64,000 nucleotides of DNA from an uncultured Latescibacterota bacterium (GTDB taxonomy: Bacteria > Latescibacterota > UBA2968), in assembly GCA_958295785.1 (NCBI GenBank), contig OY282377.1, forward strand, positions 3,534,896 to 3,598,895, given 5' to 3'. Below the pieces are notes generated by a model. That model did no database searches. It worked only from the letters and a program-made list of their open reading frames with translations, and was not told the DNA's origin. Shown here piece by piece: positions 44,076 to 61,462 of the stretch. How positions within the stretch are numbered: position 1 is the stretch's first letter; each line of letters starts with the position of its first letter. Both the position numbers and the translations under genes were made by a program.

Positions 44076-45399
44076 TATGTCAAATTTGCAACTCGAATCC
44101 ATTGAATCCTGGGCGCCGCATCCAACCGCCGCACCATTGACAGAACGCAGCGAAGACGCGCTGGCAATTGCCGCGAATGGCACGCGCACCTGCATTGGCG
44201 GATGGCAGGTTGTGTATTCGGGCACTCGGGCCGGCAAAGTGTATGAGATTGTTGCCCATACACAGTTTCAAGACGTGGATCACGCGCGCGATGTGTTGCG
44301 TTGCGAGGCGTATTGGGGCCACATGCCCCGGGACAATGCGCGGCGAAACAACGTGCTGTCTTGGGATTATCTTCTGCCCGAATGGAACGGCAATACCGTG
44401 CAATTTTCGCGACGCCTCACCGCGCCCAAAGGCGCCGACCACCTGACCGTGCGCTATACGTTCCGATGGTCCATCAAAGGCGCGTCCGAATGGCAATTGC
44501 CCAATGTGACCGTACACGGGCAGGGCGAATCGTCCAAACCCGTAAAAATCTGCGTGGCAACGGGCCGGCGGGAAGATCGCAACCGGCGGTTTGCGTCCAT
44601 TCAAGACAATGTCGATCTGTACGCGTCTTTGTGCCGCTCGGCCTGTGAACGCGAAAAACCCGATCTCATTGTGTTGCCCGAGATCGCATTGCAATACGGG
44701 ATTCAAGGCAGCCCTTTGGATTTGGCCGTGCCCGTGCCGAGTGCGGATACAGCACCGTTTTCAGATCTTGCGCGAGACTATGGCATCCATGTGCTCTTGG
44801 GCGCGATTGAACGCGATGGCGATGCGGTGTACAACACAGCCGCGTTGTTCGCGCCCAATGGCGGCATAGCGGGCAAATACCGCAAGGTGCATCTGGCCGT
44901 GGGTGGAGAAATGGATTCCGGCATTTTGCCGGGCGATGATTTCCCGGTGTTCGATACGGCAATCGGCCGGATCGGGTGCAATATTTGTATGGATTCTTCG
45001 GCGGCCGAGTCCTCGCGGATGATCGGACTCAATGGCGCGGACTTTTTGCTGTTGCCCATTATGGGCGATCACCGCGCTTGGCATCCGGAAGATCATACGT
45101 GGGACGCCCAACGCTTTCGCGGCATCATGCAAACGCGCGCGCTGGACAATCAGTTGTGCATGGTGGTGGCCGTCAACCGCGCAGAGGGCAGTTGCATCAT
45201 CGACCGCACCGGGCATGTGCTGGCCTGGAACGATGGCAGTCAGCCCTTTGTCACCGCCGAAGTCGATCTCGCAGATGGCTTCCGCCCGCAAAATCGCGGA
45301 TGCTATCGCAGCATCAACTGGATGCAACGCCGCCCCCATGCGTACCGCGTTTCAGTCGATGAAACAAACGCGGGCGGCCTGCGCCTTGAAGCGTATTGA
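44076..45399 (+). CDS. Carbon-nitrogen hydrolase (nitrilase superfamily) with approx 150-aa N-terminal extension
   Basis: AGGAGG RBS before ATG 44076; catalytic E-K-C triad contexts LPEIAL, KYRKVHL, GCNICMD; the ORF-track 5' extension to 43279 is antisense to the Omp85 gene. Confidence 0.7.
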
Positions 45400-45441
45400 T
45401 GGGGAATGGAACAATCCTCGACATCGCCAAAGGAGATATGC

Positions 45442-45625
45442 CGTGAATGCGATTGACGACATCCGGGCAGAACAAGTCCAACGGCGGGAAAGACAAGCCC
45501 GAATTGAAGGCATCAATGAGCAGATTTTAGCGCGGCTGACGAGCATTGAAATTTGGCAGAGATTGGCTGGTTGTGCGGGAATCTGTCGTCGAATACAAGG
45601 CGGGGCAGGACTGCCGAAGGGGTAG
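45442..45625 (+). CDS. Small hypothetical protein (approx 61 aa, GTG start)
   Basis: AAGGAG RBS 8 nt upstream; followed by a clear intrinsic terminator; no recognisable family. Confidence 0.25.
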
Positions 45626-45654
45626 AGGTGAATAAGCACGTTGCGCCAAAACAA

Positions 45655-45690
45655 AAGCCTCCGAGACGATGTGTTCGGAGGCTTTTTTAG
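45655..45690 (+). terminator. Intrinsic terminator (AGCCTCCGA...CGGAGGCT + TTTTTT)
   Basis: 9-bp stem, T-run. Confidence 0.5.
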
Positions 45691-45775
45691 ATGTCGGCCT
45701 CAGCGTATCCATTGCAAGTTGGGGTGGCGCGGGGCATTCCTAATTCCCGATGGGATGCAGGAACTCGAAATCAAA

Positions 45776-46429
45776 TCAAATGGGTATAACACCCCTTTGT
45801 TTGAGCGTTTCGGGGGTATCAGCCGAGACAGAGATGGCGCCGAGTTCTCTGAGGTGGGCGTTGTCCGGCGAGTCCAAAGCGAATACCGGCTTGCCCTGGG
45901 CGAGCGCGGCCTTGCACAGCCCCTCGGTCTTGCTGCCCGGTTCGGCATGGGCGATGAAGATGTGGTCGGCCAACGCGGCGACGTAGGCATTGCGCCGGGC
46001 AGCTATAGCGACGGTTGGGCGCCGGATGGTGTCGGCGAAAAAGGACAGGATGAGCAAGCGGCCTTGGGTGAGTGCGGGTTTCCAACTTTTCGGGATTCGC
46101 AGGCGCTGGAATCCCCGCGCCGGACAAACGACAATGGACGCCGTGCCCCGCAACAGAATGTCCAGAAATTCTTTCTCCATCGCGGACTGAAAACCGCCGA
46201 TGATCGCCGCGTCTGCCTCTCGGAGTGCCTGCGCCAGATCATAGGTCTTGAGGATAATGTCGCCCGGACACCGCACAGAGCAAAAGAACCCAATCGGGGT
46301 TCTGTCCAGTGCGCCGAGATTGCCTCGTGCTGTGACGACAGGAGGGGTGCCGTTATCCTCACATTGGCGCAACACCGCCGGATAGTCCGCAGCGTCGGGG
46401 CTTAACAGCGTTTGCTTCTCATTATCCAT
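45776..46429 (-). CDS. DprA/Smf-like Rossmann-fold (SLOG) domain protein, short stand-alone version
   Basis: Matches DprA Rossmann core (...AIIGGF...EKEFL..., NAYVAALADHIFIAHAEPGSKTEGLCKAALAQGKPVFAL) but only 217 aa. Confidence 0.55.
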   Translation of the reverse strand: MDNEKQTLLSPDAADYPAVLRQCEDNGTPPVVTARGNLGALDRTPIGFFCSVRCPGDIILKTYDLAQALREADAAIIGGFQSAMEKEFLDILLRGTASIVVCPARGFQRLRIPKSWKPALTQGRLLILSFFADTIRRPTVAIAARRNAYVAALADHIFIAHAEPGSKTEGLCKAALAQGKPVFALDSPDNAHLRELGAISVSADTPETLKQRGVIPI

Positions 46430-46529
46430 AGCATCCGGCTCTCAGCCATTCTCATTGTCCATGGCCTCCAACAGGCGGGCAATTTCCCGTGGCGACGGCA
46501 ACTGCCCTTGGCGTTCTTTCTACTTTTGT

Positions 46530-46567
46530 AAAAACCCCGCGCTGGAATGACCAGACGGGGTTTTTGT
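46530..46567. terminator. Bidirectional hairpin AAAACCCCG...CGGGGTTTTT
   Basis: 5-bp G/C stem extended by complementary A/T runs on both sides. Confidence 0.4.
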
Positions 46568-46584
46568 CATGTACTCCAATTACC

Positions 46585-46864
46585 GCGAGATACAAATTAC
46601 GCCCTGCTTTCGCCGCGCTTAGGAGAAGGCCAGCGCGGGATTGCTCGATGGGCAGTAGCTTCCCATTTGCGCGATTTATTCCCCTTCGACAACCGGATGG
46701 CCGTCTTCACCGCGTTCTGGGATCCTCGGATCTTCGTCGGTGAGGATGGCTTCTGACTCAGTGGGAGGGTCTTGAGTCTCATGGTTTATCTCCTTGAATT
46801 GACCCAAGAGGGTCAGCCCTTCATTTAGCTTGGGATTAGGGCATCAAAAATTGCATCTAATTCC
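46585..46864. repeat. Direct repeat B copy 1: degenerate copy of the 3' end of the protease gene plus its downstream sequence
   Basis: Approx 95% identical by eye to 47345-47634; a 1-nt deletion (AATCCCAAGC vs AATCCCCAAGC) frameshifts the protease reading frame. Confidence 0.7.
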
Positions 46865-46875
46865 GGTAGCAGTTA

Positions 46876-47085
46876 CTACATGTTTGTGTGGTCCGTCGTC
46901 GTTATTGTCTGCGGTTCTTTTGTTGCCGCTCGGTAAGCGTCAAGTCCGCTGTCGGCCTTTTGCCAGTTTCGATAGACTTCCATGACTTCGTGCACGCCCG
47001 GACGCGCCAATGCCGCTTCCAACATGGCCTTCCGGTCTTGCTCCCGCTTGGAGTCTCGATGCTTGGTTGCGTGTGTATCGCTCAT
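46876..47085 (-). CDS. Small hypothetical protein (69 aa)
   Basis: Strong AGGAGGA RBS 5 nt upstream of the ATG; no recognisable family. Confidence 0.35.
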   Translation of the reverse strand: MSDTHATKHRDSKREQDRKAMLEAALARPGVHEVMEVYRNWQKADSGLDAYRAATKEPQTITTTDHTNM

Positions 47086-47100
47086 TTTATCCTCCTATGT

Positions 47101-47316
47101 TCACATTCGTTGTTTGAAGTGTACGCAAAAATAAAATTGGTAGGCGATCATGTCGCGCTTGTGGGCGATGTCTTTGAGCGCGTAAGGCTTGTCGGCGACC
47201 GTGACTTCAACATCCGCTCCGCCGGGGTTCTAGCTGAACTCGTCAGTGAACAGCGTCTGGAGATCAAAGGTCTCCAGATGCTGTTTGACTTTGTTTCTGT
47301 CGAGAGGCGTCGACAT
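47101..47316 (-). pseudogene. Remnant of the N-terminus (approx first 60 codons) of a third PglX-like methyltransferase copy, with an in-frame TAG
   Basis: Translation MSTPLDRNKVKQHLETFDLQTLFTDEFS*NPGGADVEVTVADKPYALKDIAHKRDMIAYQ parallels MNFNRNTVKRHLENFDLQTLFIEELGWDHGGADTEVTIAGKTYALEAIAHKRGMVAYQ; TGG to TAG at 47229-47231. Confidence 0.6.
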
Positions 47317-47344
47317 TTCAAGGGCCTCACAAGGATGGCGGCGG

Positions 47345-47634
47345 CAGAATACAAATTACGCCCTGCTTTCGCCGTGCTTAGGAGAAGGCCAGCGCGGGAT
47401 TGCTCGATGGGCAGTAGCTTCCCATTTGCGCGATTTATTCCCCTTCGACAACCGGATGGCCGTCTCCACCGCGTTCCGAGTTCCTCGGCTCCGCGTTGGT
47501 GGAGTCGATTTCTGACTCTGTGGAGAGGTCTTGAGTCTCATGGTTTACCTCCTTGAATTGACCCAAGAGGGTCAGCCCTTCATTTAGCTTGGGGATTAGG
47601 GCATTAAAAATTTCATCTAATTCCTGCGGTGATT
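47345..47634. repeat. Direct repeat B copy 2 (functional 3' end of the protease gene and downstream sequence)
   Basis: See copy 1. Confidence 0.7.
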
Positions 47635-48469
47635 TTTCAACTTTTAGACCGATCCTCTCGGCCTCATCCGAGTCAATCACAAATCCGTGCTCGGGATATT
47701 GTTCCACTAAACGACGTGCTATCTTTCTCGATTGTTCATCTGTGTGTTTTGATGATAGCAAACGGATCGCATACTCCTCAGCCACTTGCAAAACTCGTGC
47801 CATTTGTGTGTAATGCACTGCGTCAATATTCTCTATTAAGGGCCGTATAAAATTGGCTGTGTACTCAAGGACAGGCGGCAAAATGGTTTCTATCTTTTTT
47901 CCTGTTCGCCCTAACAACAGCAACATAGTTTGATAGAAAACATTGAGTGCAGCGGCATTTAATCGTTCGAGGGTGTGAACCTCGTCAAGTGCCGACATAA
48001 CATTCTCTCTATCGACATCTCTTATTTGGACATCAAGCGGTCCCAACTCGGCATCTACCCCCAAGTAAATTTGATGTGCGCCGAGGGCAAGAAGTGTGGC
48101 CGCGCTTTTGGCATATCGGGGAATGAGTGCTATGAAACCGGCTCGTCGATTGAAAAGCCGAGCAATCTGATAGGCCACTCGAGTATCCCCGCCCGATGAA
48201 TCTATCAGTAGCAACGCTGGTTGTTCTGAGGATATCTGGCTCTTTCTTTCCAAAAATTCATGTTGCAACCCATCAGAAATTGGTTCTTCGCCAAAGAGGA
48301 ATAGCCAAAGCGGTAGATTCTCAAACTGCAATTGAGAGGGCAGGACAGCGTTCAAAGATCTCACGCTCATCTCTTGCAACTGACATAGCAGACGAGCAAA
48401 CTCGTCATCCAGTTCGGCTTTTTCGCCACAATATATGTCAGCGGTGTATTTCCGTTGGTTTTGGGACAT
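47435..48469 (-). CDS. SDH-family / ClpP-fold serine protease
   Basis: ClpP-like active-site context LLLIDSSGGDTRVAYQIARLF (compare ClpP INSPGG), approx 344 aa. Confidence 0.55.
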   Translation of the reverse strand: MSQNQRKYTADIYCGEKAELDDEFARLLCQLQEMSVRSLNAVLPSQLQFENLPLWLFLFGEEPISDGLQHEFLERKSQISSEQPALLLIDSSGGDTRVAYQIARLFNRRAGFIALIPRYAKSAATLLALGAHQIYLGVDAELGPLDVQIRDVDRENVMSALDEVHTLERLNAAALNVFYQTMLLLLGRTGKKIETILPPVLEYTANFIRPLIENIDAVHYTQMARVLQVAEEYAIRLLSSKHTDEQSRKIARRLVEQYPEHGFVIDSDEAERIGLKVEKSPQELDEIFNALIPKLNEGLTLLGQFKEVNHETQDLSTESEIDSTNAEPRNSERGGDGHPVVEGE

Positions 48470-48572
48470 TCGTCTTCCTCCTTATCAGCACGTTTCTGAC
48501 AATTTAGCCGCCTAACCGAGATTTGTCAAGACAGGAACTTCTCATCATGCCTTGCTCGTGCATTGCTATTGC

Positions 48573-48806
48573 TCACCGCCCCATGCGATACTTGATGTCG
48601 TAGTTGATGATGAAGTCCAATTCCTCGTCCGTGAAGCCGTAGTGTTTGGCCAACACGCGGTCAATTTCGTCGATAATAGGCTTTGATTCCCTATGGTAGT
48701 ACTCATAATCCGTTTGCTTAGTTCCAACAAATTTTTTGTTTTCTTCCAAGTGCAGTTCAAGAGACCTGCCAAGCTTGATGAGTGACTTTCTATTAGTTTT
48801 AGACAT
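48573..48806 (-). pseudogene. Displaced C-terminal fragment (77 codons) of methyltransferase copy 1, separated from the gene body by the IS
   Basis: Begins exactly at the IS left end; tail ...IDEIDRVLAKHYGFTDEELDFIINYDIKY parallels the copy-2 C-terminus ...HEIDEWISTTFSIKPERVEEI. Confidence 0.6.
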
Positions 48807-49900
48807 TTAGGACTTACGCATGCTGAGTTAAAAAAGGGTGCAATTCCGTAAAATTTATCACTTTGAGGAGGTATCAATGCGCCACCCGACGCGTTTGGAT
48901 TACTGTCAGTATCTGCTTAGCAGTCCCCTCAACTATACCCTGACCCATTTCGCCGACCATAGCGAAGGGTTCAGTCATGATATGATCAACCGCTATCTCG
49001 CCGGTGCGCGTATCCCACCCCGCTTGGTGTGGGAACACGTCAAAGACCACATCGCGTTGACGCCCAAAGGCTATGTGATCTTTGATGACACGGTTTTAGA
49101 CAAGCGACACGCACGCAAGATCGCGTTAGTGCGCCGTCAATATAGCGGCAACGCCCAAGGCGTCATCAACGGCATCGGGGTGGTCACATGTGTCTATGTC
49201 AATCCGCAAGAGGATCGGTTCTGGCTGATTGACTATCGGATTTATGACCCGCAAGGCGATGGCAAAACCAAATTGGATCATCTCAAGGACATGCTCTCTG
49301 GGTTGGTCTATCAGAAGCGCCTTCCTTTTACCGGGGTCTTGATGGACAGTTGGTATGCGACCAAAACGGTCATGCTACACATAGAGCAGATGCAAAAAAC
49401 CTATTATTGTCCCCTCAAGACGAACCGGCGCGTGGACGATTCGGCAGGCACAATCCCCTACCAGCGCGTAGATAGCTTAACTTGGACTCAAGAGGAGCGC
49501 AAACAAGGCAAGTCCATTAAAATCAGAGGGTTCCCCAAAGACCACAAAGTGAAATTATTCCGGGTGGCGTCTTCTGCCAGACGCACGGCGTATGTCGTGA
49601 CCAACGACCATGCTCAAAACGATTCTTCAGTGGTACAACAGGTGTGTCACCAAAGATGGAAAATTGAGCAATTTCACCGCGAAGTCAAACAAGTGACCGG
49701 GCTTGAAAAGTGTCAATGCCGGTTGGCACGCATTGTACGAAATCATATTGGGTGTGCGATGTTAGTTTGGATAAGACTCGAGCAGGTGGCCTATCAAACA
49801 GGACAAACCATTTATCAAGTCAAATACCGAGGGCTGGCTGACTTCTTGAGACAACAACTCAAAGCACCTCATATTCCAATGGTGATTGCGTAAGTCCTAA
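48807..49900 (+). mobile_element. Insertion sequence (approx 1.09 kb) with 13-bp perfect terminal inverted repeats TTAGGACTTACGC / GCGTAAGTCCTAA, inserted into methyltransferase copy 1
   Basis: Inverted repeats at 48807-48819 and 49888-49900; flanking CAT/ATG triplet appears duplicated (48804-48806 and 49901-49903). Confidence 0.7.
48877..49893 (+). CDS. DDE transposase (IS4/IS5/IS701-superfamily-like)
   Basis: GAGGAGG RBS; candidate DDE residues in VIFDDTVLDK, VLMDSWYATK and RWKIEQFHREVKQ. Confidence 0.65.
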   Translation: MRHPTRLDYCQYLLSSPLNYTLTHFADHSEGFSHDMINRYLAGARIPPRLVWEHVKDHIALTPKGYVIFDDTVLDKRHARKIALVRRQYSGNAQGVINGIGVVTCVYVNPQEDRFWLIDYRIYDPQGDGKTKLDHLKDMLSGLVYQKRLPFTGVLMDSWYATKTVMLHIEQMQKTYYCPLKTNRRVDDSAGTIPYQRVDSLTWTQEERKQGKSIKIRGFPKDHKVKLFRVASSARRTAYVVTNDHAQNDSSVVQQVCHQRWKIEQFHREVKQVTGLEKCQCRLARIVRNHIGCAMLVWIRLEQVAYQTGQTIYQVKYRGLADFLRQQLKAPHIPMVIA

Positions 49901-52900
49901 CATTTTTCCCAAGTCAATACGAAAATCGCTCACGTCATCAACAGTCAAATGCCAGCAGTCTCCTTTAGTTTCCCAATGCCAAAAGAACAAGCTGGAATTA
50001 AACACACCTGACAACTCCTCTGGTTGAATTCCTTTTGCCGGATAATAAGTTTTAAACTCCCGTGACTTCTTGGAGGCAAGAAAACACTTTACCCACATCA
50101 TCAATCTAATGTTCAAATAGAATGGTTGAGAATCAGTTTTGCGATTAGAGTACAACGTATTCAGTGGGAGAATGTCCCTGTTGATTTTGCTGATAATGGA
50201 TTCTTCAAGTTCCGTTGCAAACTTACGAATAAATCCCTTTCGATAGTTTAGTCTGTTGTAATCCAGGTTGTTAAAAAGATGATTCCTTTCACTGTCGGGA
50301 GCTCTTCCATAAAAGTGAGTAAATCCTGTGGAATGGATGGCAGAATTTCCCTTAGTGCAAAGTATGATTGAAAGTTTCTGATGTACCCCAAAAAATAATG
50401 TAGATGGTCTGTCAGCATAATTACTGATATGCAACATAGGATAGGTTGCGGTTATGACATTTCGAGCTTGATTCATCCTCTTGGTTGACACCCAAGAGAT
50501 AGGAATTATCCACCCCGCATTTCTTTGACCGAGCGAGGTTCCCCGCTCAAGCACGAAGGCGTAAAGGCTGCCGCAGGATTCGGTTTCGTAGCCTTTGACG
50601 GTGTAGCCTTCTTTGGTTTTTTTGACTTTGCTGTATTCCACATACGGCGGATTCCCAATAATCACATCAAAGCCACCCTTGTGCATGATGCCGTAGAACT
50701 CGACGAACCAATGAAACGGCTGATGGCTGTCGCGCCATCGCTGATACGCTCGCCGGCTCTTGGGCTTGACGCCGTATTCACCGGCCAAATACTCGTCCAA
50801 CTCATCGCGCAGATTAGTGAGGCGTTTCCGCAATTTCAACTTCGCGCTGGCAAACGCACTGGCGTCCATCCCAGGTTTCGTCTGCATCTGGCGGAACTGG
50901 CGAAAGGCGCGGTCGGCTTTCTCGGCGCGTTCCTCGATCTGGGGAAGCGACAGTTGCTTGATCAGGTCGCTACTCAATGCTTCCTTCACTTGCGCGAGCG
51001 AAGTGAAGCCGACGAGCGTGTTCCCGGCGCGGACGTTGAAGTCGATGTCGGGCAACGGCTCGATCTGCTCGTAAGTATCCAACTGCGCGACGAGTTTGAG
51101 GAACAGCCGCAGCTTGCAGATTTCCACCGCCTCCTCCATGATATCCACGCCGTAGAGATTGCCGATGATGATCGACTTGAGAATGAAATAGCGTTCGCTG
51201 GCGTGCTCTTCAACCTGTTGCAACACTTGGCGAAAATCGCGCAGTTTCTCGGGGCGGTGCTTGCGGTTCAAGCGTTCCAAGTCGTCGAGGAAACCGCGCA
51301 TGGCCTCCAAGCAGGCGACGTAGAGCGGCTCCAAAATGTTGAGCGCGGCGAATAGGAATGCGCCCGAGCCGCAGGTGGGATCGAGGACGGAGACCGCGTT
51401 GATCGCCTTCCAAAAAGCGTGCACCAGTTCCGGCCCCTCGCTGCTCGCAATGACGTCTTGGGCAAACTTTTCGATGTCCAAATTGTACGTGATCAGATCG
51501 TTGATCGACGCGATTGCACCAGCGGCGAGTTTGGCGCGGATGTCCTCATAGCGTTGGCGGCGGGCAATGTGCTCGCGCCACGTCTCGGTCGGCAGAGCGT
51601 ATTCGGGCGGGGCCGCTTCGTTCCAGCCATCGCGCTTTGCTATGTCGTCCAGACCGGCGGCGATCTCCGGCGGCAGGGCGCGTTTTTCGGCAAGGTCCGC
51701 GTTGTTGTGCAGATCGTAGGTGATGCCGTGACGCACCGCCTCGTGAAAGTAGCGATCCGGGGCGTCCGACAGCAACCGCCATATCCAGCCATCGGGCGAG
51801 AAGGCGATGGCGCATGCCTTTCGCGCTCGGTCGAACAAGAACGGAATGATGCTGTTGCGGCTAATGTAGCCGGTAATGTCTTCCTTGGTGTAGTACGCCC
51901 CCATCTGTTTCTGGTTGATGTACTTCTCGAAAATGTAGCCGAGCACATCGGGGTTGATCTCGTTGTCGTTGCGGAGCGGCCGGTCGTCGAGATGCCATTG
52001 GTACGCGTCGAAGAACGCGAAAATCTGTTCAAAGGCTTCGTCGGGAATGTGAATTTCCGGGTTGTCCCGCTCCAAGTCATGCACCTCGAACAAGCCGCCG
52101 TTGAGATAGGGGACTTTGCCGATCAGGGCGACCAAGGCGGGGGCGCGGTCAGCTTCGGGCTGTCCCAAGCCCTCGTGAAACAGCCGCAACAGGAACAGCC
52201 GGTAAAAGCCGAGGAAGTTGCCCTCGCCCTGTTGCTGGCGCACCCGTTCCAAACGGTCGCGCAGATAGTTTGGGTTGTTGTCGAGAAAACCGCGCTTCTG
52301 GATGAAGTAAATGAACATCATGCGATTGAGCATCAGCGAGGCGTACCACTCGCGGTCAGTCAAATTTTCAATGCCCTCGATGAAGTCCAGAAACGCGCTG
52401 TGCTCTTTCTTGAACCGGTCATAGAATCGCTTGGCGACTTTCTCCACATCGAAAGCCGCCCGCACTCGGCTCGTCACATCGACAAGGGTGAGGGCTTCTT
52501 CCTCCTCCAGCGCGAAGGCGATTTGCTCTAACTTCTGGACCAGGGATTCGCCCGATTGCCCCCGATCATAGATATGCTGTCGAGACCGATCGGGGCGACC
52601 CGGTTCGCGCTTGACCCATTGCCAATACTGGGCATCGGCGCGTGCGTAGATGATGAGGTGTTCGCGGACGGTCTTGGCGACATTCCGCTCGATCTTCTGC
52701 CGAGTGGGGTAATCGGGCAAGGCCCTGTCCGAATCCGCCATGTATTGATAGGCAACCATACCGCGCTTGTGGGCGATGGCCTCGAGCGCGTAAGTCTTAC
52801 CGGCGATAGTAACCTCGGTATCCGCTCCGCCGTGGTCCCAGCCGAGTTCTTCAATGAAGAGCGTCTGAAGATCGAAGTTCTCCAGATGTCGTTTGACTGT

Positions 52901-52918
52901 GTTTCTGTTGAAATTCAT
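49859..52918 (-). CDS. PglX/DrmMI-like (Eco57I-superfamily) N6-adenine DNA methyltransferase, copy 1; TRD truncated by the IS, so likely inactivated
   Basis: Motif I VLDPTCGSGAFL, motif IV IIGNPPYV; last 13 aa (LGLTQSPLEYEVL) are encoded by the IS right end. Confidence 0.75.
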   Translation of the reverse strand: MNFNRNTVKRHLENFDLQTLFIEELGWDHGGADTEVTIAGKTYALEAIAHKRGMVAYQYMADSDRALPDYPTRQKIERNVAKTVREHLIIYARADAQYWQWVKREPGRPDRSRQHIYDRGQSGESLVQKLEQIAFALEEEEALTLVDVTSRVRAAFDVEKVAKRFYDRFKKEHSAFLDFIEGIENLTDREWYASLMLNRMMFIYFIQKRGFLDNNPNYLRDRLERVRQQQGEGNFLGFYRLFLLRLFHEGLGQPEADRAPALVALIGKVPYLNGGLFEVHDLERDNPEIHIPDEAFEQIFAFFDAYQWHLDDRPLRNDNEINPDVLGYIFEKYINQKQMGAYYTKEDITGYISRNSIIPFLFDRARKACAIAFSPDGWIWRLLSDAPDRYFHEAVRHGITYDLHNNADLAEKRALPPEIAAGLDDIAKRDGWNEAAPPEYALPTETWREHIARRQRYEDIRAKLAAGAIASINDLITYNLDIEKFAQDVIASSEGPELVHAFWKAINAVSVLDPTCGSGAFLFAALNILEPLYVACLEAMRGFLDDLERLNRKHRPEKLRDFRQVLQQVEEHASERYFILKSIIIGNLYGVDIMEEAVEICKLRLFLKLVAQLDTYEQIEPLPDIDFNVRAGNTLVGFTSLAQVKEALSSDLIKQLSLPQIEERAEKADRAFRQFRQMQTKPGMDASAFASAKLKLRKRLTNLRDELDEYLAGEYGVKPKSRRAYQRWRDSHQPFHWFVEFYGIMHKGGFDVIIGNPPYVEYSKVKKTKEGYTVKGYETESCGSLYAFVLERGTSLGQRNAGWIIPISWVSTKRMNQARNVITATYPMLHISNYADRPSTLFFGVHQKLSIILCTKGNSAIHSTGFTHFYGRAPDSERNHLFNNLDYNRLNYRKGFIRKFATELEESIISKINRDILPLNTLYSNRKTDSQPFYLNIRLMMWVKCFLASKKSREFKTYYPAKGIQPEELSGVFNSSLFFWHWETKGDCWHLTVDDVSDFRIDLGKMLGLTQSPLEYEVL

Positions 52919-53040: not shown

Positions 53041-54009
53041 TCAGGCCAACTCGACTCCCCGCAACTCACTGCCGAGTGAAAGGTTATCCGGTGCAGGAAA
53101 CCACTCGTCATTGGCTGGCAGAAGTAGTTCACTTCTGAGTTGCTCTTCGTACCTACTCAGCCCATCGGCTCTGCCCATTTTTTTTAAGTGCTTAACTCTA
53201 GACGAGTTCAGATGGATTGAGTAGTCATCCCGAACATAGAGTAGTCCGGTATCGAAAGACCGATGATGCAAGGAGCAAAGAGCCAAGCCATTGCTGACTA
53301 CATCATGCCCTTGTAGATGGGCGTGTGGCACAATATGAGCGGCATCTACAAGGCCCAGTTGAATCCCGCACATTGCACACCTGTAGGAGTACGCTTCTAA
53401 CACCGCTTGCCTGAATCGTGGGTTTCGAGGATACGCAGTACTAGTTACCTGTATTCTCTGTCGCTTGACCGCGATTGGTCGCGCAAGGAATTGCTTATAG
53501 TCTCGGGCTATCCTTTGCAATGCCCGATCAGTATCTCGGTGAAGTGCTGCCTGGTTCTCCACATACAAACCAATGAGATCGGGGCGAAACATGATCACGA
53601 TTTGCCCATCGGTGTCGGTATGAGTTGATAATCCCTGTGCGGCAGCCTCCTGCATGCGCGATAACCGAGTATAGAGAGAAAATCGCTGGACTCTCGATTT
53701 CCGGTCCAAAAGTCTGTCTGGATCCCATGCGCTGAATGTATTTACGTCTGCGGAAAATCCGAGAACGAGAACCTTGTCCTCCCTTTGTCTATTCCTGAGT
53801 TTCTCAGGCAAGTCGCCTGGACATTGGATCCGATATTCATCCGGCGTACGGCTAGTAGAATGGATGTTGCCAATGAAAACAGTAACGAACTTGTCTTTGA
53901 AGAAAAAGCGGTACGGATTGTCTCTGCCATCAAAATAGACGAGGTCTGTGTGTTGTCGAAAAGCGTCGAACAATGCATGGAACAGATCCATCTTGTTTAG
54001 TATGACCAT
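53041..54009 (-). CDS. HNH endonuclease with approx 200-aa uncharacterised N-terminal domain
   Basis: C-terminal HNH motif CAMCGIQLGLVDAAHIVPHAHLQGHDVVSNGLALCSLHHRSFD. Confidence 0.7.
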   Translation of the reverse strand: MVILNKMDLFHALFDAFRQHTDLVYFDGRDNPYRFFFKDKFVTVFIGNIHSTSRTPDEYRIQCPGDLPEKLRNRQREDKVLVLGFSADVNTFSAWDPDRLLDRKSRVQRFSLYTRLSRMQEAAAQGLSTHTDTDGQIVIMFRPDLIGLYVENQAALHRDTDRALQRIARDYKQFLARPIAVKRQRIQVTSTAYPRNPRFRQAVLEAYSYRCAMCGIQLGLVDAAHIVPHAHLQGHDVVSNGLALCSLHHRSFDTGLLYVRDDYSIHLNSSRVKHLKKMGRADGLSRYEEQLRSELLLPANDEWFPAPDNLSLGSELRGVELA

Positions 54010-54037: not shown

Positions 54038-57000
54038 CTAAATTTCTTCAACGCGCTCAGGTTTAATCGAGAATGTCGTCGATATCCACTCGTCAATTTC
54101 GTGCAGACGACCATCGGCGGAAAAATCCATGGGACTCGGCGGCAGGAAACGCTCTCTTAGAGATGGGGGGATGTTCTTCTCTCCGGCTTCGTAGTTGATA
54201 CTACGTACCAAAGAAATAAAAAAAAATAATTCTTTCAAATCAGCCCAACCTGCACCCAGTCCCGAAAGAAATACAACATCGGCCTTTCTCGTCAGTGAAA
54301 GCAACTTTTGATAGTTGAAATTTCCAACGTACTTACCTGCGTTTTTCTTAAAGACAAGCGCGGAATATCTTTGTTGGTGTAGTAATTCTCCAATGGTAGC
54401 CAGCCTGCGTAAATGATCTTTTGGAAACGAAGCGATGGGCGCGAGGAGGTCCGTGAGTAACCAGTTTGTAACGTGGAATCCATCCCCTCGCGTTAGCCAA
54501 TACCAAAAGCAGGCGTCGCCTGCTGTACTCGCGAGCGCGGCAAATGCTATCTCATCAGAGGGCAGTGTCAGCCAGCCGCACTGAGCGGGATCGAGCACAC
54601 ATCCGTCATCTACGTGCAATACGGGTGGCTGTTCAAGATATGTAGAAATGAAATTCCGCGCTGTGGGCGAAAATCCCAATCTGACTGTTGCACCATCTGT
54701 AGCGCAGGGCGAGGTTGGCTTTGAGGGAGATGACTCGATGTGCAATGCCAACAGTTTTGCACAGTAGCGATTCGCCAAGCGGGGAATGCCGAAATTTTCG
54801 GCGGGGACGCCATTAGCTACCTTGTTATAGGTTATGTTGTTCAGCAGAAAAGTCCGAAACGCCGAGCGCCATCTAAAGAGACGAGTGGCGAACGAATCGC
54901 CATCCGATGGGGAACTAAGCCAGATTGTGCATCGCTGGCTTACGCCGGAAAAGAGGGTTGCGGGCCCATTGTCGAAAGAAGAAAACCAATGCGTCCCCCT
55001 GTTGGCGAGTTGCCCCCGGAGGTCAGAAAACTCAAAGCTGAAGGTCACAGAAAGGGGAACAATAACCCCGTAGCGTCCGCACTGATTGGTGATGCGGTGG
55101 GATTGCATGACCACGTATCCATAAATGTCCGGGAATTTCAGGGACTTGGGCGACTGCACAACGTATTCCAGTGACTTGCAGTTGATATACGGCGGGTTCC
55201 CGATCACCACATCAAAGCCGCCCTTGTGCATGATGCCGTAGAACTCGACGAACCAATGAAACGGCTGGTGGCTGTCGCGCCATCGCTGATACGCTCGCCG
55301 GCTCTTGGGCTTGACGCCGTATTCACCGGCCAAATACTCGTCCAATTCGTCGCGCAGATTGGTGAGGCGTTTCCGCAATTCCGACTTCGCGCTGGCAAAC
55401 GCACTGGCATCCATCCCAGGTTTCGTCTGCATGGCGTGGAACTGGCGAAAGGCGTGGTCGGCTTTCTCGGCGCGTTTCTCGATCTGGGGAAGCGACAGTT
55501 GCTTGATCAGGTCGCTACTCAATGCTTCCTTCACTTGCGCGAGCGACGTGAAGCCGACGAGCGTGTTCCCGGCGCGGACGTTGAAGTCGATGTCGGGCAA
55601 CGGCTCGATCTGCTCGTAAGTATCCAACTGCGCGACGAGTTTGAGGAACAGCCGTAGCTTGCAGATTTCCACCGCCTCCTCCATGATATCCACGCCATAG
55701 AGATTGCCGATGATGATCGACTTGAGAATGAAATAGCGTTCGCTGGCGTGCTCTTCAACCTGTTGCAACACTTGGCGGAAGTCGCACAGTTTCTCGGGAT
55801 GGTGCTTGCGGTTCGAGCGTTCCAAGTCGTCGAGGAAACCGCGCATGGCCTCCAAGCAGGCGACGTAGAGCGGCTCCAAAATGTTGAGCGCGGCGAATAG
55901 GAATGCGCCCGAGCCGCAGGTGGGATCGAGGACGGAGACCGCGTTGATCGCCTTCCAAAAAGCGCGAATCAGTTCCGGCCCCTCGCTGCTCGCAATGACG
56001 TCTTGGGCAAACTTTTCGATGTCCAAATTGTACGTGATCAGATCGTTGATCGACGCGATTGCACCAGCGGCGAGTTTGGCGCGGATGTCCTCATAGCGTT
56101 GGCGGCGGGCGATGTGCTCGCGCCACGTCTCGGTCGGCAGAGCGTATTCGGGCGGGGCCGCTTCGTTCCAGCCATCGCGCTTTGCTATGTCGTCCAGACC
56201 GGCGGCGATCTCCGGCGGCAGGGCGCGTTTTTCGACAAGGTCCGCGTTGTTGTGCAGATCGTAGGTGATGCCGTGACGCACCGCCTCGTGAAAGTAGCGA
56301 TCCGGGGCGTCCGACAGCAACCGCCATACCCAGCCATCGGGCGAGAAGGCGATGGCGCATGCCTTTCGCGCTCGGTCGAACAAGAACGGAATGATGCTGT
56401 TGCGGCTAATGTAGCCGGTGATGTCTTCCTTGGTGTAGTACGCCCCCATCTGTTTCTGGTTGATGTACTTCTCGAAAATGTAGCCGAGCACATCGGGGTT
56501 GATCTCGTTGTCGTTGCGGAGCGGCCGGTCGTCGAGATGCCATTGGTACGCGTCGAAGAACGCGAAAATCTGTTCAAAGGCTTCGTCGGGAATGTGAATT
56601 TCCGGGTGGTCCCGCTCCAAGTCATGCACCTCGAACAAGCCGCCATTGAGATAGGGGACTTTGCCGATCAGGGCGACCAAGGCGGGGGCGCGGTCGGCTT
56701 CGGGCTGTCCCAAGCCCTCGTGAAACAGCCGCAACAGGAACAGCCGGTAAAAGCCGAGGAAGTTGCCCTCGCCCTGTTGCTGGCGCACCCGTTCCAAACG
56801 GTCGCGCAGATAGTTTGGGTTGTTGTCGAGAAAACCGCGCTTCTGGATGAAGTAAATGAACATCATGCGATTGAGCATCAGCGAGGCGTACCACTCGCGG
56901 TCAGTCAAATTTTCAATGCCCTCGATGAAGTCCAGAAACGCGCTGTGCTCTTTCTTGAACCGATCATAGAATCGCTTGGTGACTTTCTCCACATCGAAAG

Positions 57001-57463
57001 CCGCCCGCACTCGGCTCGTCACATCGACAAGGGTGAGGTCTTCTTCCTCCTCCAGCGCGAAGGCGATTTGCTCTAACTTCTGGACCAGGGATTCGCCCGA
57101 TTGCCCCCGATCATAGATATGCTGTCGAGACCGATCGGGGCGACCCGGTTCGCGCTTGACCCATTGCCAATACTGGGCATCGGCGCGTGCGTAGATGATG
57201 AGGTGTTCGCGGACGGTCTTGGCGACATTCCGCTCGATCTTCTGCCGAGTGGGGTAATCGGGCAAGGCCCTGTCCGAATCCGCCATGTATTGATAGGCAA
57301 CCATACCGCGCTTGTGGGCGATGGCCTCGAGCGCGTAAGTCTTACCGGCGATAGTAACCTCGGTATCCGCTCCGCCGTGGTCCCAGCCGAGTTCTTCAAT
57401 GAAGAGCGTCTGAAGATCGAAGTTCTCCAGATGTCGTTTGACTGTGTTTCTGTTGAAATTCAT
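54038..57463 (-). CDS. PglX/DrmMI-like (Eco57I-superfamily) N6-adenine DNA methyltransferase, copy 2 (1141 aa, apparently intact)
   Basis: Motif I VLDPTCGSGAFL, motif IV VIGNPPYI; N-terminal approx 745 aa approx 97-98% identical (by eye) to copy 1; C-terminal approx 390 aa unrelated. Confidence 0.8.
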   Translation of the reverse strand: MNFNRNTVKRHLENFDLQTLFIEELGWDHGGADTEVTIAGKTYALEAIAHKRGMVAYQYMADSDRALPDYPTRQKIERNVAKTVREHLIIYARADAQYWQWVKREPGRPDRSRQHIYDRGQSGESLVQKLEQIAFALEEEEDLTLVDVTSRVRAAFDVEKVTKRFYDRFKKEHSAFLDFIEGIENLTDREWYASLMLNRMMFIYFIQKRGFLDNNPNYLRDRLERVRQQQGEGNFLGFYRLFLLRLFHEGLGQPEADRAPALVALIGKVPYLNGGLFEVHDLERDHPEIHIPDEAFEQIFAFFDAYQWHLDDRPLRNDNEINPDVLGYIFEKYINQKQMGAYYTKEDITGYISRNSIIPFLFDRARKACAIAFSPDGWVWRLLSDAPDRYFHEAVRHGITYDLHNNADLVEKRALPPEIAAGLDDIAKRDGWNEAAPPEYALPTETWREHIARRQRYEDIRAKLAAGAIASINDLITYNLDIEKFAQDVIASSEGPELIRAFWKAINAVSVLDPTCGSGAFLFAALNILEPLYVACLEAMRGFLDDLERSNRKHHPEKLCDFRQVLQQVEEHASERYFILKSIIIGNLYGVDIMEEAVEICKLRLFLKLVAQLDTYEQIEPLPDIDFNVRAGNTLVGFTSLAQVKEALSSDLIKQLSLPQIEKRAEKADHAFRQFHAMQTKPGMDASAFASAKSELRKRLTNLRDELDEYLAGEYGVKPKSRRAYQRWRDSHQPFHWFVEFYGIMHKGGFDVVIGNPPYINCKSLEYVVQSPKSLKFPDIYGYVVMQSHRITNQCGRYGVIVPLSVTFSFEFSDLRGQLANRGTHWFSSFDNGPATLFSGVSQRCTIWLSSPSDGDSFATRLFRWRSAFRTFLLNNITYNKVANGVPAENFGIPRLANRYCAKLLALHIESSPSKPTSPCATDGATVRLGFSPTARNFISTYLEQPPVLHVDDGCVLDPAQCGWLTLPSDEIAFAALASTAGDACFWYWLTRGDGFHVTNWLLTDLLAPIASFPKDHLRRLATIGELLHQQRYSALVFKKNAGKYVGNFNYQKLLSLTRKADVVFLSGLGAGWADLKELFFFISLVRSINYEAGEKNIPPSLRERFLPPSPMDFSADGRLHEIDEWISTTFSIKPERVEEI

Positions 57464-57686: not shown

Positions 57687-58052
57687 TACAATTCGTTGAC
57701 GAAACGTTCGTATTCTAATTTTGGGTGATAGCCGAAATTGACGAGCAGGCCGAGTTTCATACCTGTTGATTTCAGGTAATTGATGATTTGGCGCGATGTC
57801 GGTCTTGATTTCCACAATTATTGTGTCGAAACAGAGAAAATCAGGTAGGTAGAACTGCTTCAACGCCTGCCCTTTGTAACGAAGTTTCAATTTTGTCTTT
57901 TCCTTGTGCGGGATATCCGAAGAAGTGAATTCCATTGCGAGGCACTCTTGATAAACAGCTTCGAGAAAGCCGGATCCTTTTTCTTTGTACACTTCAAAGC
58001 AGGCACCGATAATCCGGTAACTTTCTTCCTGATAGACAATTTTTCCAGTCAT
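57687..58052 (-). pseudogene. GxxExxY-family (PD-(D/E)XK-like) protein gene with an internal frameshift or small deletion
   Basis: N-part MTGKIVYQEESYRIIGACFEVYKEKGSGFLEAVYQEC...IIVEIKTDIA in one frame; C-part QIINYLKSTGMKLGLLVNFGYHPKLEYERFVNEL in another; ATG overlaps helicase stop as ATGA. Confidence 0.6.
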
Positions 58053-61000
58053 AATTTTCGCGTCCTTTCGCGCTTTTCGTCGTTCATCAGACCCATAGAG
58101 CAGATAATGCGCGGCTCTTGGCGTTCGTCTTCTTCGTGCATGATGCAAAGCCGGTCGTCATCTCTGAGCGCGATAACCAATTGCGCGAGGGCCTCGTCGG
58201 AGATGCTGCTACGCAACTGGCGGTTCAGCGTATCCACCGCCGTTTGGCGCAGGGGATAGCGGTAAATGTCTTCAATTGTACGCCGCAGCGAATCGGTATC
58301 GAACAACGTGCCTTTGACGTTTTCCGCATAGCTCTTGAGCCTTTCATAAGCGCGAAACCGCGCACCGGATGGCCGGCCGAGATGACCGCCGACCTGCTTT
58401 TCCTCACGGGCGATATGTTCTGCGGCTTTGCGAACCAAATCGTGGTGGGTCTCGTGGCGCGGGAGGGCCGGCGTATCGGGCACGCATGCGGCGGCGTGCA
58501 AAATCTCGAATTGACTTTCGGTCACGCTATTGCCATCGCGATTCATCCACGCCAAGGCATCGTGCCCCTGCGCTGTACGCATATAAACCAGCGCGCCTTC
58601 GGGCCGCTGTGGCGTTTCCGGATATGCCATTGATGAATGCACCACGGATGGCATCGCTTCAATTTTCCGCTCGAGCGATGGATCGGCTGTTGTCGCGTTT
58701 TTCCAAATCTGATACGCATACGAGGCGAGATCGACATCCGTCTCGTCGTCGCTGTCGAGAATCCCCGCCTTTTCGTTGTAGAGGTCGAGCACGGCCCGTT
58801 GATCCTCATCCTCGAAAAACGCCTCGTCCGTTCCCATCACCTCGGCATTGTCGCGGAGGCGCGTCCGAACGCGGGCGCGAAGTCGGATCAAGCGTTCAAT
58901 GCCCTCGGCAGGCAAAAAGGAGCAGCACAAAATATCTCGCGCCTGTTGACCGATGCGGTCCACGCGCCCGGCCCGTTGAATCAAGCGGATAATCGCCCAC
59001 GGCAAATCGTAATTGACAACGATGGCGCAGTCTTGCAGGTTTTGCCCCTCACTGAGCACGTCGGTTGCGACCAGCACGCGCAACTCGCCTCTAGATGAGA
59101 CCCAAGCCGTCTTGTCGTTGCTCTTTGGACTGAACCGCCACGCGAGTTCCGTCGGGTTCGCCATGTCCCCAGTCGCGGCGGCTATCCCGGACACGCCGCG
59201 TGCTTTTAGCTCCATCTCCAAATAGCGCACCGTGTCGGCGAACTGCGTAAAGACCAGAATTTTGCGGTCGGGATGTTCGTCCATGAGCAGGACTTCCAAG
59301 GCGCGGAGTTTCGCGTCTTCAGCCGCCCGCCACGCGCCGAACTGCGCCAACAAATTGAGCAGCGTCTCGGTGTCGGCGACCAAGTTCCTGCGAAGGGCGT
59401 CGCCAAAATGATGCGAGGCCAACCACCGAAACCGCCTTGTGTAGGTGTTGGCAAAGCGTGCGTAGATCGCGGCAGCGCGGTTGCGAAAATCCCTTTCGGC
59501 TCTTAGCGGCGTCGGCTCTGCGGGGGCCTCATTCTCCTCGTCATCCGCATCAAAAAAATCCCCGATAGTCTGATCGGCGTCCTCGTCAAAAGACTGCGGA
59601 TCCAAGAGTCCCGCATCTGTCGTCCCTATCGGAAGCGGCAGGTCATTTTCAAGGGCATACAAAAAAATGAAGTTCCGCAGAACGTGCCGTTCAACCGACA
59701 GCAAGAAGGCGTGGCCGCTGCTCTCCAAGCGTTTGAACAAATTGGTTCGGCAAAAACCCATCAGCCGCTTGCCCGCGCGCGACAAATCGTCCAGCACCTT
59801 CTTTTCTCTCGGCGTGGGTGGCATAGGCGGCGACGCCCCGACGTAGTTGCCGAGTCCATAGCGCGGCAGTTCCAAGCTGTTTATGGCGTCGATCACGTCG
59901 TTTGCAAATAGCCGGGCGTACTGATCGTCAATGTCGAACGGAATCGTCTTTGGAACCCGAGTCGGAAAATACGACCGCGTGCCATCTTCAAAGGTCAGGT
60001 ACTTGCGACCACTGTGCGGATCCGTGTCGGCGTAGTGTGCACGAATAAAACTGCGCGTCCGGCGCACGAGATATAAGCGCATGAGCTCGCGCCAGTCGTC
60101 CGCGTACTCGGATTTTTCAAACGCGGATAGAGACCGCACAGACGCTTGGTGCCGGCGGATGAACTCGGTTTCGCCGATCTCCTGCAACATGCGCTCTGGG
60201 CGAATGCCCAAGTCCTCGTCTTCGGGCACAAACAAGCGGAGTTGGCTGGACAGATCGAGATACGTTTTGTTGTAGGGCGTCGCGGACAGCAGAATACACT
60301 TGCTGTCGTTTTCCCAGATGTATTCTCGGATGGCCCGGTAGCGTTTGCCCTCGCGGTTTCTCAGGTTGTGGCTTTCGTCGATGATCACCAACCGATACCG
60401 GCGCAGGTCGGGCAGTTCGTTGATGACGCGGCTCACCGATAGCACGCGGGCGCGCATGCGGTATTGATCGCGGTAATCCTCCCACATGGAAACGAGGTTT
60501 TTCGGACTTATGATCAGGGTTTCGAGGCCGTGATCGTCTTCGAACACACGCGCCAAGGCCGTCGCCATCAGGGTCTTGCCCAGCCCGACGACATCGCCGA
60601 TGATGACGCCGCCGCGTCGGTTGAGGTGATGCGCGGCGATTTTCACGGCAGCCGTTTGGAAATCGAGGAGTTTGTCGCCAAAATCTTTCGGGATGCGAAA
60701 TTCCGCCAAGCCGGCCCGCGCTTCTTGCGAGAGGTGGTACGCAATCTTGATGTAGATATGGTGCGGCGGGATCAGTTCTTCTCGCGCCCAACTCTCGTCG
60801 ATAATCTCGGCGAGCGCGTCAGAAATATCCACGCACCAGCGGTCATTCCAGCGGTCTTCAAACCACTGGGCGAGTTTTTCGCAGGCGTCTCGGTCGAGCA
60901 CGTCAATGTTGAGTTCGCCCTGTCGGGACAGCCCCGATAGCGTGAGATTGCTGCTTCCGAGATAGCCAACCGTCGGGTTGATCGGATCGGGACGGAATAA

Positions 61001-61462
61001 CAAGTAGAGCTTGGCGTGAAGCGGGTGTTTGAGAAAGAGCTTGACGACGACTTTCTCAGCCTTGATCTGCGCTGCCAACCGCCGCAGACCCGCCTCATCT
61101 TCATTGGTCGGCGCGCCCAAGATCAGTTGTTCCCGAAATTCTTCCGCGAGTCTTTTCTTTATGCGGTGTGCCGCCTGATTGTCGAGCGCGGAGCGATTGC
61201 CCGACAAGCTCGCGGACAGCCGAAACTCGTCGTGTGGCAAGCGTTGCATCCCAACGAGAAGCCGGCAACAATGTCCGACGCCTCCGCGCCACTTTTCCAC
61301 GTATTCATCAATTGACCGCCATCCTCGCAGGTTGAAATAGCCCACGCAAAAATCCGCCCGCTCTGCGATCTCCAGGGTCTCCGCCAACGCGGGATGGAGG
61401 TGTTGTTCAATATTGTCGAAAATTCGGGGCATACATGCTCCTACGGTTTGGAATTGGATCAT
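58049..61462 (-). CDS. Fusion protein: N-terminal PLD-family (single HKD) nuclease-like domain + SNF2-family helicase
   Basis: HKD motif HAKLYLLFRPD...GSSN; SNF2 motifs GLGKTL (I), IIDESHNLRN (II), helicase-C QRAGRVDRIGQ (VI); AGGAGA RBS. Confidence 0.8.
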   Translation of the reverse strand: MIQFQTVGACMPRIFDNIEQHLHPALAETLEIAERADFCVGYFNLRGWRSIDEYVEKWRGGVGHCCRLLVGMQRLPHDEFRLSASLSGNRSALDNQAAHRIKKRLAEEFREQLILGAPTNEDEAGLRRLAAQIKAEKVVVKLFLKHPLHAKLYLLFRPDPINPTVGYLGSSNLTLSGLSRQGELNIDVLDRDACEKLAQWFEDRWNDRWCVDISDALAEIIDESWAREELIPPHHIYIKIAYHLSQEARAGLAEFRIPKDFGDKLLDFQTAAVKIAAHHLNRRGGVIIGDVVGLGKTLMATALARVFEDDHGLETLIISPKNLVSMWEDYRDQYRMRARVLSVSRVINELPDLRRYRLVIIDESHNLRNREGKRYRAIREYIWENDSKCILLSATPYNKTYLDLSSQLRLFVPEDEDLGIRPERMLQEIGETEFIRRHQASVRSLSAFEKSEYADDWRELMRLYLVRRTRSFIRAHYADTDPHSGRKYLTFEDGTRSYFPTRVPKTIPFDIDDQYARLFANDVIDAINSLELPRYGLGNYVGASPPMPPTPREKKVLDDLSRAGKRLMGFCRTNLFKRLESSGHAFLLSVERHVLRNFIFLYALENDLPLPIGTTDAGLLDPQSFDEDADQTIGDFFDADDEENEAPAEPTPLRAERDFRNRAAAIYARFANTYTRRFRWLASHHFGDALRRNLVADTETLLNLLAQFGAWRAAEDAKLRALEVLLMDEHPDRKILVFTQFADTVRYLEMELKARGVSGIAAATGDMANPTELAWRFSPKSNDKTAWVSSRGELRVLVATDVLSEGQNLQDCAIVVNYDLPWAIIRLIQRAGRVDRIGQQARDILCCSFLPAEGIERLIRLRARVRTRLRDNAEVMGTDEAFFEDEDQRAVLDLYNEKAGILDSDDETDVDLASYAYQIWKNATTADPSLERKIEAMPSVVHSSMAYPETPQRPEGALVYMRTAQGHDALAWMNRDGNSVTESQFEILHAAACVPDTPALPRHETHHDLVRKAAEHIAREEKQVGGHLGRPSGARFRAYERLKSYAENVKGTLFDTDSLRRTIEDIYRYPLRQTAVDTLNRQLRSSISDEALAQLVIALRDDDRLCIMHEEDERQEPRIICSMGLMNDEKRERTRKL

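Follow-up and report, generated by a model that had tools for sequence, protein, structure and literature searches.

A 64-kb window of an uncultured Latescibacterota bacterium (64,000 nucleotides (nt) of contig OY282377.1; the closest genome records to the locus are those of Candidatus Latescibacterota) contains, at 46590-47624, two copies of a direct repeat that bracket the remnant of a methylase gene, directly downstream of an intact gene for an SDH-family serine protease. We consider it likely that recombination has left this segment as a scar in a defence locus of restriction-modification-like character, which is hypervariable and in which cassettes of an Eco57I-like methylase and an effector have been stacked head to tail and exchanged between strains. 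The repeat copies, which look like duplicated protease gene ends, each hold an intact and conserved small gene, orf61, that is predicted to be coding and to be the downstream partner of a clade of SDH proteases in many phyla. What makes the locus interesting is this overlooked overlapping gene, together with the exchange of cassettes among strains, and a second conserved small gene, orf69, is added to them; the methylase relic itself is ordinary and is one more sign that defence loci are assembled piecemeal through deletion and recombination.

A BLAST search of 46430-47700 against the whole window revealed two kinds of match only, the direct repeat and a methylase stub that matches the 5' ends of both methylase genes of the locus (MT2 and MT3); no further copies of the stub, of orf69 or of pieces of the repeat were found elsewhere in the 64 kb. 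All features mapped in this way lie on the minus strand. Alignment of the two repeat copies (46590-46864 and 47349-47624) showed 91.7% identity over 276 aligned bases (E 1.8e-110). This bears out a preliminary description, made earlier from the letters of the window, of direct repeats of about 280 bp on both sides of the stub, although the ends given there (46585, 47345 and 47634) were 5-10 nt too wide. The right copy comprises the last approximately 63 codons of the protease and 86 nt past its stop. As had been proposed, it is the real protease C-terminus: full-length homologues, 73-84% identical to the window protease, cover the 344 amino acid (aa) protein end to end. The left copy is a protease 3' remnant without the catalytic domain, in which only residues ~281-344 are left. 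Their alignment contains one 1-nt indel, in a run of C, and this deletion frameshifts the left copy in the protease frame. The left copy is thus the frameshifted duplicate it had been taken for as far as the protease frame is concerned, but it is more than a decaying duplicate, since it carries an intact orf61.

The protease (47435..48469, minus strand) is an intact SDH-family ClpP-fold serine protease of 344 aa. Its match to PF01972 (E 4.3e-14) is above the Pfam cut-off and identifies the catalytic domain; against NCBIfam NF047768 it reaches 63 bits with a cut-off of 250, and is therefore no equivalog by NCBI's rule. Its acidic C-terminal tail overlies the start of orf61-R (47356..47541, minus strand), which has 61 codons, with AAGGAGG 7 nt before its ATG, overlaps the intact protease by 107 nt in another frame and stops 79 nt past the protease stop. 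In the window clade the protease frame covers the first 36 codons of orf61. The left copy, orf61-L (46597..46782, minus strand; 61 codons, AAGGAG 7 nt before the ATG), follows the protease remnant and shares 82% aa identity with orf61-R. The stop of orf61 is the TAA in GGCGTAATTT, exactly at the repeat end.

For comparison, loci of relatives (numbered L001 and onwards) were retrieved with orf69, orf61 or protease-tail queries. The ribosome-binding site, ATG and stop position of orf61 are conserved in every copy. In L013 the last 118 nt of the repeat are only 63% identical, yet orf61 is open and stops at the aligned position. Both the left copy of the window and L002 have their frameshift before the orf61 ATG, a weak hint that orf61 is maintained. 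Most same-strand gene overlaps in bacteria measure 1-4 nt. An out-of-frame overlap of 107 nt is unusual, and gene callers therefore report orf61 only where the protease is deleted: they list a 61-aa open reading frame (ORF) in all loci that lack the protease body (L001, L007, L008; 59 aa in L002), and a public NCBI/ENA record (P0175) includes the orf61-L sequence among its genes.

Searches with orf61 in translated nucleotide sequences (tblastn) detected matches directly after proteases of 39-51% identity in ten phylum-level lineages, among them Pyrinomonadaceae, Nitrospirae, Planctomycetota, Blastocatellia, Omnitrophota, Myxococcales, Binatia, Terriglobia and Betaproteobacteria. The distant homologues all carry G(T/S)R(D/N)AVE(T/S)AI.LSK...WE...W, and we defined the orf61 family as ORFs of 57-80 aa that have the motif G(T/S)R(D/N)AVE(T/S)AI.LSK..K..(W)E and, after it, a conserved W. 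Against the family profile, in whose training set they were included, the two window copies reach 84-92 bits. For a non-circular test, a profile built from seven window-clade sequences only was run against 7987 ORFs in 42 distant loci. It matched 16 of them (E<=0.01), all on the protease strand and ending 110-349 nt past the protease match, while 49 of 50 column-shuffled profiles gave no match and one gave a single match. A phmmer search with a single orf61 sequence against 1.8 billion representatives returned only 7 matches, owing to the short query and to the small number of copies that gene callers report.

With respect to the protease stop, the distant orf61 genes overlap by 0-11 nt in 7 of the 10 lineages and by 38 nt in L021, and are separated by a gap of approximately 100 nt in L034. 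The distant proteases stop at a point equivalent to residue ~305-311 of the window protein, at or just after the orf61 start, and for this reason the acidic tail of the window-clade protease looks like a later extension laid over an older orf61. In this it resembles overprinted genes, the protease frame extending 107 nt over orf61; the length of the out-of-frame overlap sets it apart. By these comparisons orf61 appears to be a cross-phylum gene that has escaped annotation, lying out of frame inside, or hard against, the ends of SDH protease genes, and studies of SDH proteases are probably missing their partner. More generally, a repeat of a pseudogene fragment can conceal an intact gene, and repeats of gene ends merit checking in all frames and against distant relatives.

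The protease also matches the PHROGs families phrog_21683 (E 3e-32) and phrog_11747 (E 7e-22), both without an assigned function, which indicates that relatives of the protease circulate in phages, though without orf61 or orf69. Among viral contigs we found 57 SDH-like proteases (27-41% identity), none of them followed by orf61 and none preceded by orf69, and orf69 itself was not found in these contigs. The partnership thus appears confined to one clade of cellular proteases. A literature search for small partners of SDH proteases or for this gene set revealed nothing relevant.

Between the repeat copies lies orf69 (46876..47085, minus strand), with AGGAGGA at 47090-47096, 4-5 nt before its ATG; the 69-aa ORF with a strong ribosome-binding site seen there previously is therefore intact. 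It belongs to a family of ~70 aa (52 clusters in a protein search) with the core MLEAALARPGVREVM..Y..WQ..D.GLDAYRAATK....TTTD, which the window copy fits. Pairwise ratios of non-synonymous to synonymous polymorphism (pN/pS) among intact copies are 0.1-0.4, which argues for a conserved gene under purifying selection. Its predicted structure consists of three helices, with a predicted local distance difference test score (pLDDT) of 73.5. A scan of Joint Genome Institute (JGI) metagenomes with the orf69 alignment detected a single locus, L058. In L004 (8001-11000) an orf69-family gene precedes a 416-aa protein with DUF1156 and DUF499 neighbours, and in L005/L006 (8001-9250) the L005 copy, orf70, is followed after 31 nt by a distant SDH protease (26% identity); the family is thus not tied to one partner.

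The remnant upstream of orf69 is a dead 5' stub of a third Eco57I/type IIG-like methylase gene, codons 1 to ~61 (47134..47316, minus strand). Positions 47303-47136 align with 52911-52744 (MT2) and 57456-57289 (MT3) at 79.8% identity over 168 nt (E 2.9e-38), in agreement with the earlier recognition of a relic of a third methyltransferase copy. The ATG lies at 47316, and the TAG that had been noticed in place of the Trp of ELGWDHGG was found at 47232-47230 (codon 29), within a conserved motif changed from FIEELGWDHGG to FTDEFS*NPGG. A remnant of about 60 residues had been placed at 47316..47101; its start and approximately 61 codons stand, but the homology stops at ~47134, and the remaining ~33 nt to 47101 are the 5' leader of orf69, which occurs without the stub in L001, L002 and L010. 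N-terminal homology places the stub in the methylase family, but with the TAG at codon 29 and its end at ~61 it has no open frame with PF07669, and by its sequence it is a pseudogene fragment that would give no functional methylase. In no relative was it seen as an independent intact small gene. Its identity to all methylase alleles in hand is 76-80% (76-79% to those of L011, L014 and L055). Being similarly far from every allele, with several replacements in the most conserved motif, the stub appears to be an old, neutrally decaying relic. As a genuine relic of a third methylase beside MT2 and MT3, it upholds the view that at least three methyltransferase cassettes have been carried by the locus. 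It also contains a near-perfect 19-bp palindrome (47247-47287), where the matching stretch of MT2 and MT3 is less palindromic; since its minus strand has no U-tract, it is probably no operon terminator.

In L010, whose protease is 81% identical to that of the window, the operon is intact and comprises a promoter (TTGCGG-17-TATTAT), orf70, 97 nt, a 330-aa protease, ~90 conserved nt and a hairpin. Compared with this arrangement, the left unit of the window reads as an orf69-protease-orf61 operon without the protease body. At the deletion junction (46862..46878, minus strand) the orf69 stop (TAG TAA) and ~9 nt are joined to protease codon ~281 (GGAATTAGAT). The same junction is present in L001, L007 and L059-L062, and also, at an identity of only 86% and in another chromosomal neighbourhood, in L008 and L009. 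Other relatives show other losses. In L002/L003, which are syntenic with L010, the junction lies 21 nt past the orf70 stop and is joined to codon ~262; L055 has lost protease codons ~17-231; and in L120 codon 54 is joined to codon 282 across ACCGC microhomology. These junctions point to at least four independent deletions of the protease body. Within L120 (716-1141; P0212), protease codons 1-54 joined to 282 are followed by a shift into the orf61 frame. P0211 is another fusion, with an unrelated N-terminus; like P0212, it finishes with the conserved half of orf61. On its right side, the L120 deletion stops at the same point as the window-type junction (..CCGC.GGAATTAGAT).

Co-occurring strains were compared on six contigs (L001, L007, L059, L060, L061 and L062) of one sample (ERZ19489113), whose flanks are 98-99% identical to those of the window. 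With the window, they display four architectures. S1 (L059) reads helicase-MT2'-TIR-orf69-orf61-DprA and S2 (L061, L062) helicase-MT3-HNH-MT2'-TIR-orf69-orf61-DprA. S3 (L001, L007, L060) reads helicase-MT3-HNH-[native promoter-orf69b-orf61(R type)]-stub-orf69-orf61(L type)-DprA, and S4, the window, helicase-MT3-HNH-MT2::IS-protease/orf61(R)-stub-orf69-orf61(L)-DprA, where IS is an insertion sequence. Every sampled strain has orf69 and orf61 with the protease body deleted between them, beside the DprA-like gene. The cassette MT2::IS-protease-orf61 occurs only in the window strain; in the others its place is taken by a TIR cassette or by a second orf69-orf61 unit. In S1 the TIR gene separates the ribosome-binding site of orf69 from its native promoter. 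This promoter is retained in S3 by the unit 5' of the stub, whereas in the downstream unit the stub is fused inside the -10 box; in the window, too, the native promoter is replaced by the methylase stub. The stub and both flanking junctions are identical base for base (271/271) between S3 and S4 strains, and since L001, L007 and L060 were assembled independently, an assembly artefact is ruled out.

The preliminary description had envisaged an ancestral three-cassette arrangement among relatives. None was found in any of them, and the maximum is two intact cassettes (MT3-HNH and MT2'-TIR, in L061 and L062). More distant relatives have the plain four-gene form, helicase-MT-protease/orf61-DprA (L011, L014), or helicase-MT3-HNH-(deleted protease)orf61-DprA (L055). 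Taken together, the architectures of strains and distant relatives suggest that the helicase, a methylase, a copy of orf61 and the DprA-like gene are the constant parts of the locus, with a slot that takes HNH, SDH protease or TIR. As strains of one metagenome with the same frame and swapped effectors, they offer a natural experiment on the needs of the helicase-methylase-DprA set. The TIR insert of L059 (8775-9990; also in L061 and L062) is AT-rich, ~1.15 kb long and encodes a 186-aa TIR_2 protein, the third effector type in the slot.

The cassette exchange that we favour would have involved two processes. Microhomology-mediated deletions would have made the junctions, examples being CGCCG or ACCGC at the end at protease codon ~281 and a break within the -10 box from which orf69 was natively transcribed. 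Homologous recombination and gene conversion, largely between strains, would then have stacked and swapped the cassettes by way of their shared sequences, the first 2.3 kb of the methylase genes and the 276-bp segment with orf61. Transcription probably starts at the promoter-like site TTGACA-17-TAAATT 5' of the protease (48529-48501, minus strand; a consensus match only), and one transcript would cover protease/orf61-R, stub, orf69 and orf61-L up to a terminator-like hairpin (46530..46565; AAAAACCCCG...CGGGGTTTTT with A5/T5 flanks), which was read directly from the sequence and was not listed by the scan. The hairpin is present after orf61-L only and is conserved in L002, L008, L010 and L011. 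Read-through to orf61-L is proposed because this sole terminator follows orf61-L.

If instead the protease 3' end and the methylase had been duplicated in place, the left copy, the stub and the spacer would be decaying junk. We regard this as unlikely. The frameshift of the left copy in the protease frame, the stop in the stub and the direct orientation of all parts would fit, but both copies keep orf61 with its ribosome-binding site, the sole frameshift lies upstream of the ATG, and orf69 is conserved and under purifying selection. The left unit is found in all strains and, elsewhere in the chromosome, in the 86% identical L008, whereas among the strains the intact protease occurs in the window only. 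The differences between the repeat copies are also mosaic: 17 of 23 lie in the central 63 bp (73% identity), with 96-98% identity on either side. In this central part the right copy is nearest to L010 and L002 (89-91%) and the left copy to L011 and L008 (81-84%), so that one recent in-place duplication does not fit. Neither does a simple tandem duplication, as the divergence is uneven and both the protease body (5' of the right copy) and the terminator (3' of the left copy) are unrepeated. In S1 and S2 it is the right-type allele that adjoins DprA, and unit 1 of L001 is a mosaic of left and right alleles, from which it follows that the copies recombine. The strain comparison thus largely refutes an in-place origin. 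Of the remodelling by duplication and deletion without inversion that had been suggested, deletion and recombination between direct repeats hold, as does the absence of inversion, but simple duplication does not.

The same recombination might serve as a programmed switch, in which the direct repeats toggle cassettes and so vary methylation specificity or effector. In its favour, co-occurring strains of one sample differ in exactly these cassettes, and the mosaic orf61 copy shows recombination, with perfect runs of up to 90 bp, the longest between the repeat copies. We nevertheless find it quite improbable, since recombination between direct repeats deletes DNA and is irreversible within a lineage, the decayed stub is beyond reactivation, and allele exchange between strains fits the variation equally well. 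Switches by programmed inversion, such as the shufflons of Type I hsdS genes and further gene-altering inversions, depend on inverted repeats and, as a rule, on a recombinase encoded close by (PMC9881135). Like an hsdS shufflon, the locus has partial or alternative copies of a specificity gene adjacent to each other in a defence locus whose arrangement varies within a species. Here, however, all repeats are direct: a scan for inverted repeats of at least 30 bp over 16 kb (42000-58000) gave 0 pairs, and no recombinase, integrase or invertase domain was found in the ORFs scanned between 45.7 and 63.1 kb, where the only related enzyme is the DDE transposase of the insertion sequence. An invertase shufflon is therefore rejected, as is, for want of an integrase or recombinase, an integron-like cassette.

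Highly improbable, finally, is that the ~90 nt after the protease stop are a non-coding element (a protein-binding site, a structured RNA or a signal associated with a terminator) and the 61-codon ORF accidental. In favour of this reading, conservation is higher in the stretch than in the coding tail that precedes it, the product has many K, R, S and P residues, as is often the case out of frame in acidic regions, and substitution ratios are indecisive. Against it, the motif recurs after distant proteases where the DNA is unconserved and the small ORF does not overlap the protease, RNAalifold on the 90 nt gave -13 kcal/mol with a covariation term of +0.31, which lends no support, and Rfam had no match in 46400-47700.

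Within the exchanged cassettes, orf61 (basic, mostly disordered, with one conserved helix) and orf69 (three-helix) would most likely bind or regulate the protease in the manner of an antidote or adaptor; this is the weakest step of the proposed mechanism. Such a role would explain why the small genes are intact where the protease body is lost. It is possible, and we propose it only tentatively, that orf69-protease-orf61 is a toxin-antidote-like module, with orf61 (in some lineages together with orf69) as regulator or antidote, and forms a swappable effector in an undescribed helicase-methylase-effector-DprA system. If so, protease loss with retention of the small genes would be selected, for example as protection from incoming protease copies, and the tail of the window-clade protease would be overprinted onto orf61 in an unusually long out-of-frame overlap of 107 nt. 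The likeness to toxin-antitoxin pairs lies in the gene arrangement alone, a small gene tightly coupled to an enzyme gene and still open where the enzyme body has repeatedly been lost; in contrast to such pairs, the small gene is downstream, not upstream, and the sampling is biased to loci that keep it. SDH proteases are, to our knowledge, no established toxin class. Conflict systems are described as containing small, fast-evolving and mostly disordered proteins with a predicted role in negative regulation or in sensing the trigger (PMC10853773). Compared by description only, orf61 resembles these, being small, predicted to be mostly disordered with one helix and travelling with a defence-island effector, and by this analogy orf61 and orf69 may be regulators of a conflict system.

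Several observations weigh against parts of this interpretation. Neither small gene has a Pfam, NCBIfam, PADLOC or PHROGs label. The model of orf61 is of low confidence (pLDDT 61) and shows a single helix, which spans the conserved motif, in an otherwise disordered chain, and a Foldseek comparison of the orf69 model with the PDB gave no fold match. For the 25 non-overlapping codons of orf61, the ratio of non-synonymous to synonymous substitutions (dN/dS) is 0.2-0.4 in the orf61 frame versus about 1, but in close relatives only, distant relatives being uninformative. In 44 species-representative genome loci, orf69 was in no case found beside the protease. Retention of the small genes after protease loss is prone to ascertainment bias, as the loci were retrieved by these genes or by the protease tail. 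A full-length relative of the third methylase was not found.

Along the minus strand, the gene order of the locus is helicase, MT3, MTaX1-HNH, MT2::IS, protease, stub, orf69, left repeat copy, hairpin and DprA-like gene. According to domain scans, the conserved upstream end is a PLD-SNF2 helicase (58049..61462, minus strand), which matches the PADLOC candidate 'HKD+Snf2' (C3a139) and DrmD. The intact MT3 (54038..57463, minus strand) is an Eco57I/type IIG-like methylase of 1141 aa with a full-length match to PADLOC PDLC03628. It is paired with the effector MTaX1-HNH (53041..54009, minus strand; domain scans). MTaX1 is a likely sensor of modified DNA (PMC10853773). MT2 (48573..52918, minus strand), of the same methylase type, is split by an insertion sequence with a DDE transposase (48808..49899, plus strand; 1092 bp), which has 13-bp terminal inverted repeats, ends in TAGGACTTACGCA and is flanked by a 5-bp target duplication (ACATT); its removal in silico restores a reading frame of 1082 aa. 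The helicase gene of L060 is broken by a 97.6% identical copy (L060 3179-4269), and this near-identical copy suggests that the insertion sequence is active in the population. At the conserved downstream end, the DprA-like (PsyrA-like) protein (45776..46429, minus strand) matches two antitoxin-type partners in PADLOC, PsyrA (E 1.7e-14) and, weakly, ShosA.

MT2, MT3 and the stub belong to the same family as type IIG/Eco57I-MmeI-like genes (PADLOC REase_MTase_IIG PDLC03628; PF07669, PF20473), and the PF07669 match starts at residue 587 in both MT2 and MT3. The first ~2.3 kb of MT2 and MT3 are ~97% identical and the remainder is divergent, as in genes with a swappable C-terminal specificity region; 3' divergence after a shared 5' part is the usual route of specificity change in type IIG enzymes. 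The locus differs from a plain type IIG system in that the methylase lies between the PLD-SNF2 helicase and the DprA-like gene and has alternative effectors (MTaX1-HNH, SDH protease-orf61 and TIR). No PADLOC model matched the helicase-methylase-effector-DprA gene set as one system, and the protease, orf69 and orf61 received no PADLOC label.

In two Latescibacterota chromosomes (L014 7070-9050 and L055 6380-8040), 1.7-2 kb separate orf61 from the DprA-like gene. Short REP-like repeats (30-66 nt, rich in TTTCGCG) lie 5' of each methylase start, at 52938-53003 and 57483-57662 in the window and at 4401-4569 and 9052-9117 in L001, and may mark cassette boundaries.

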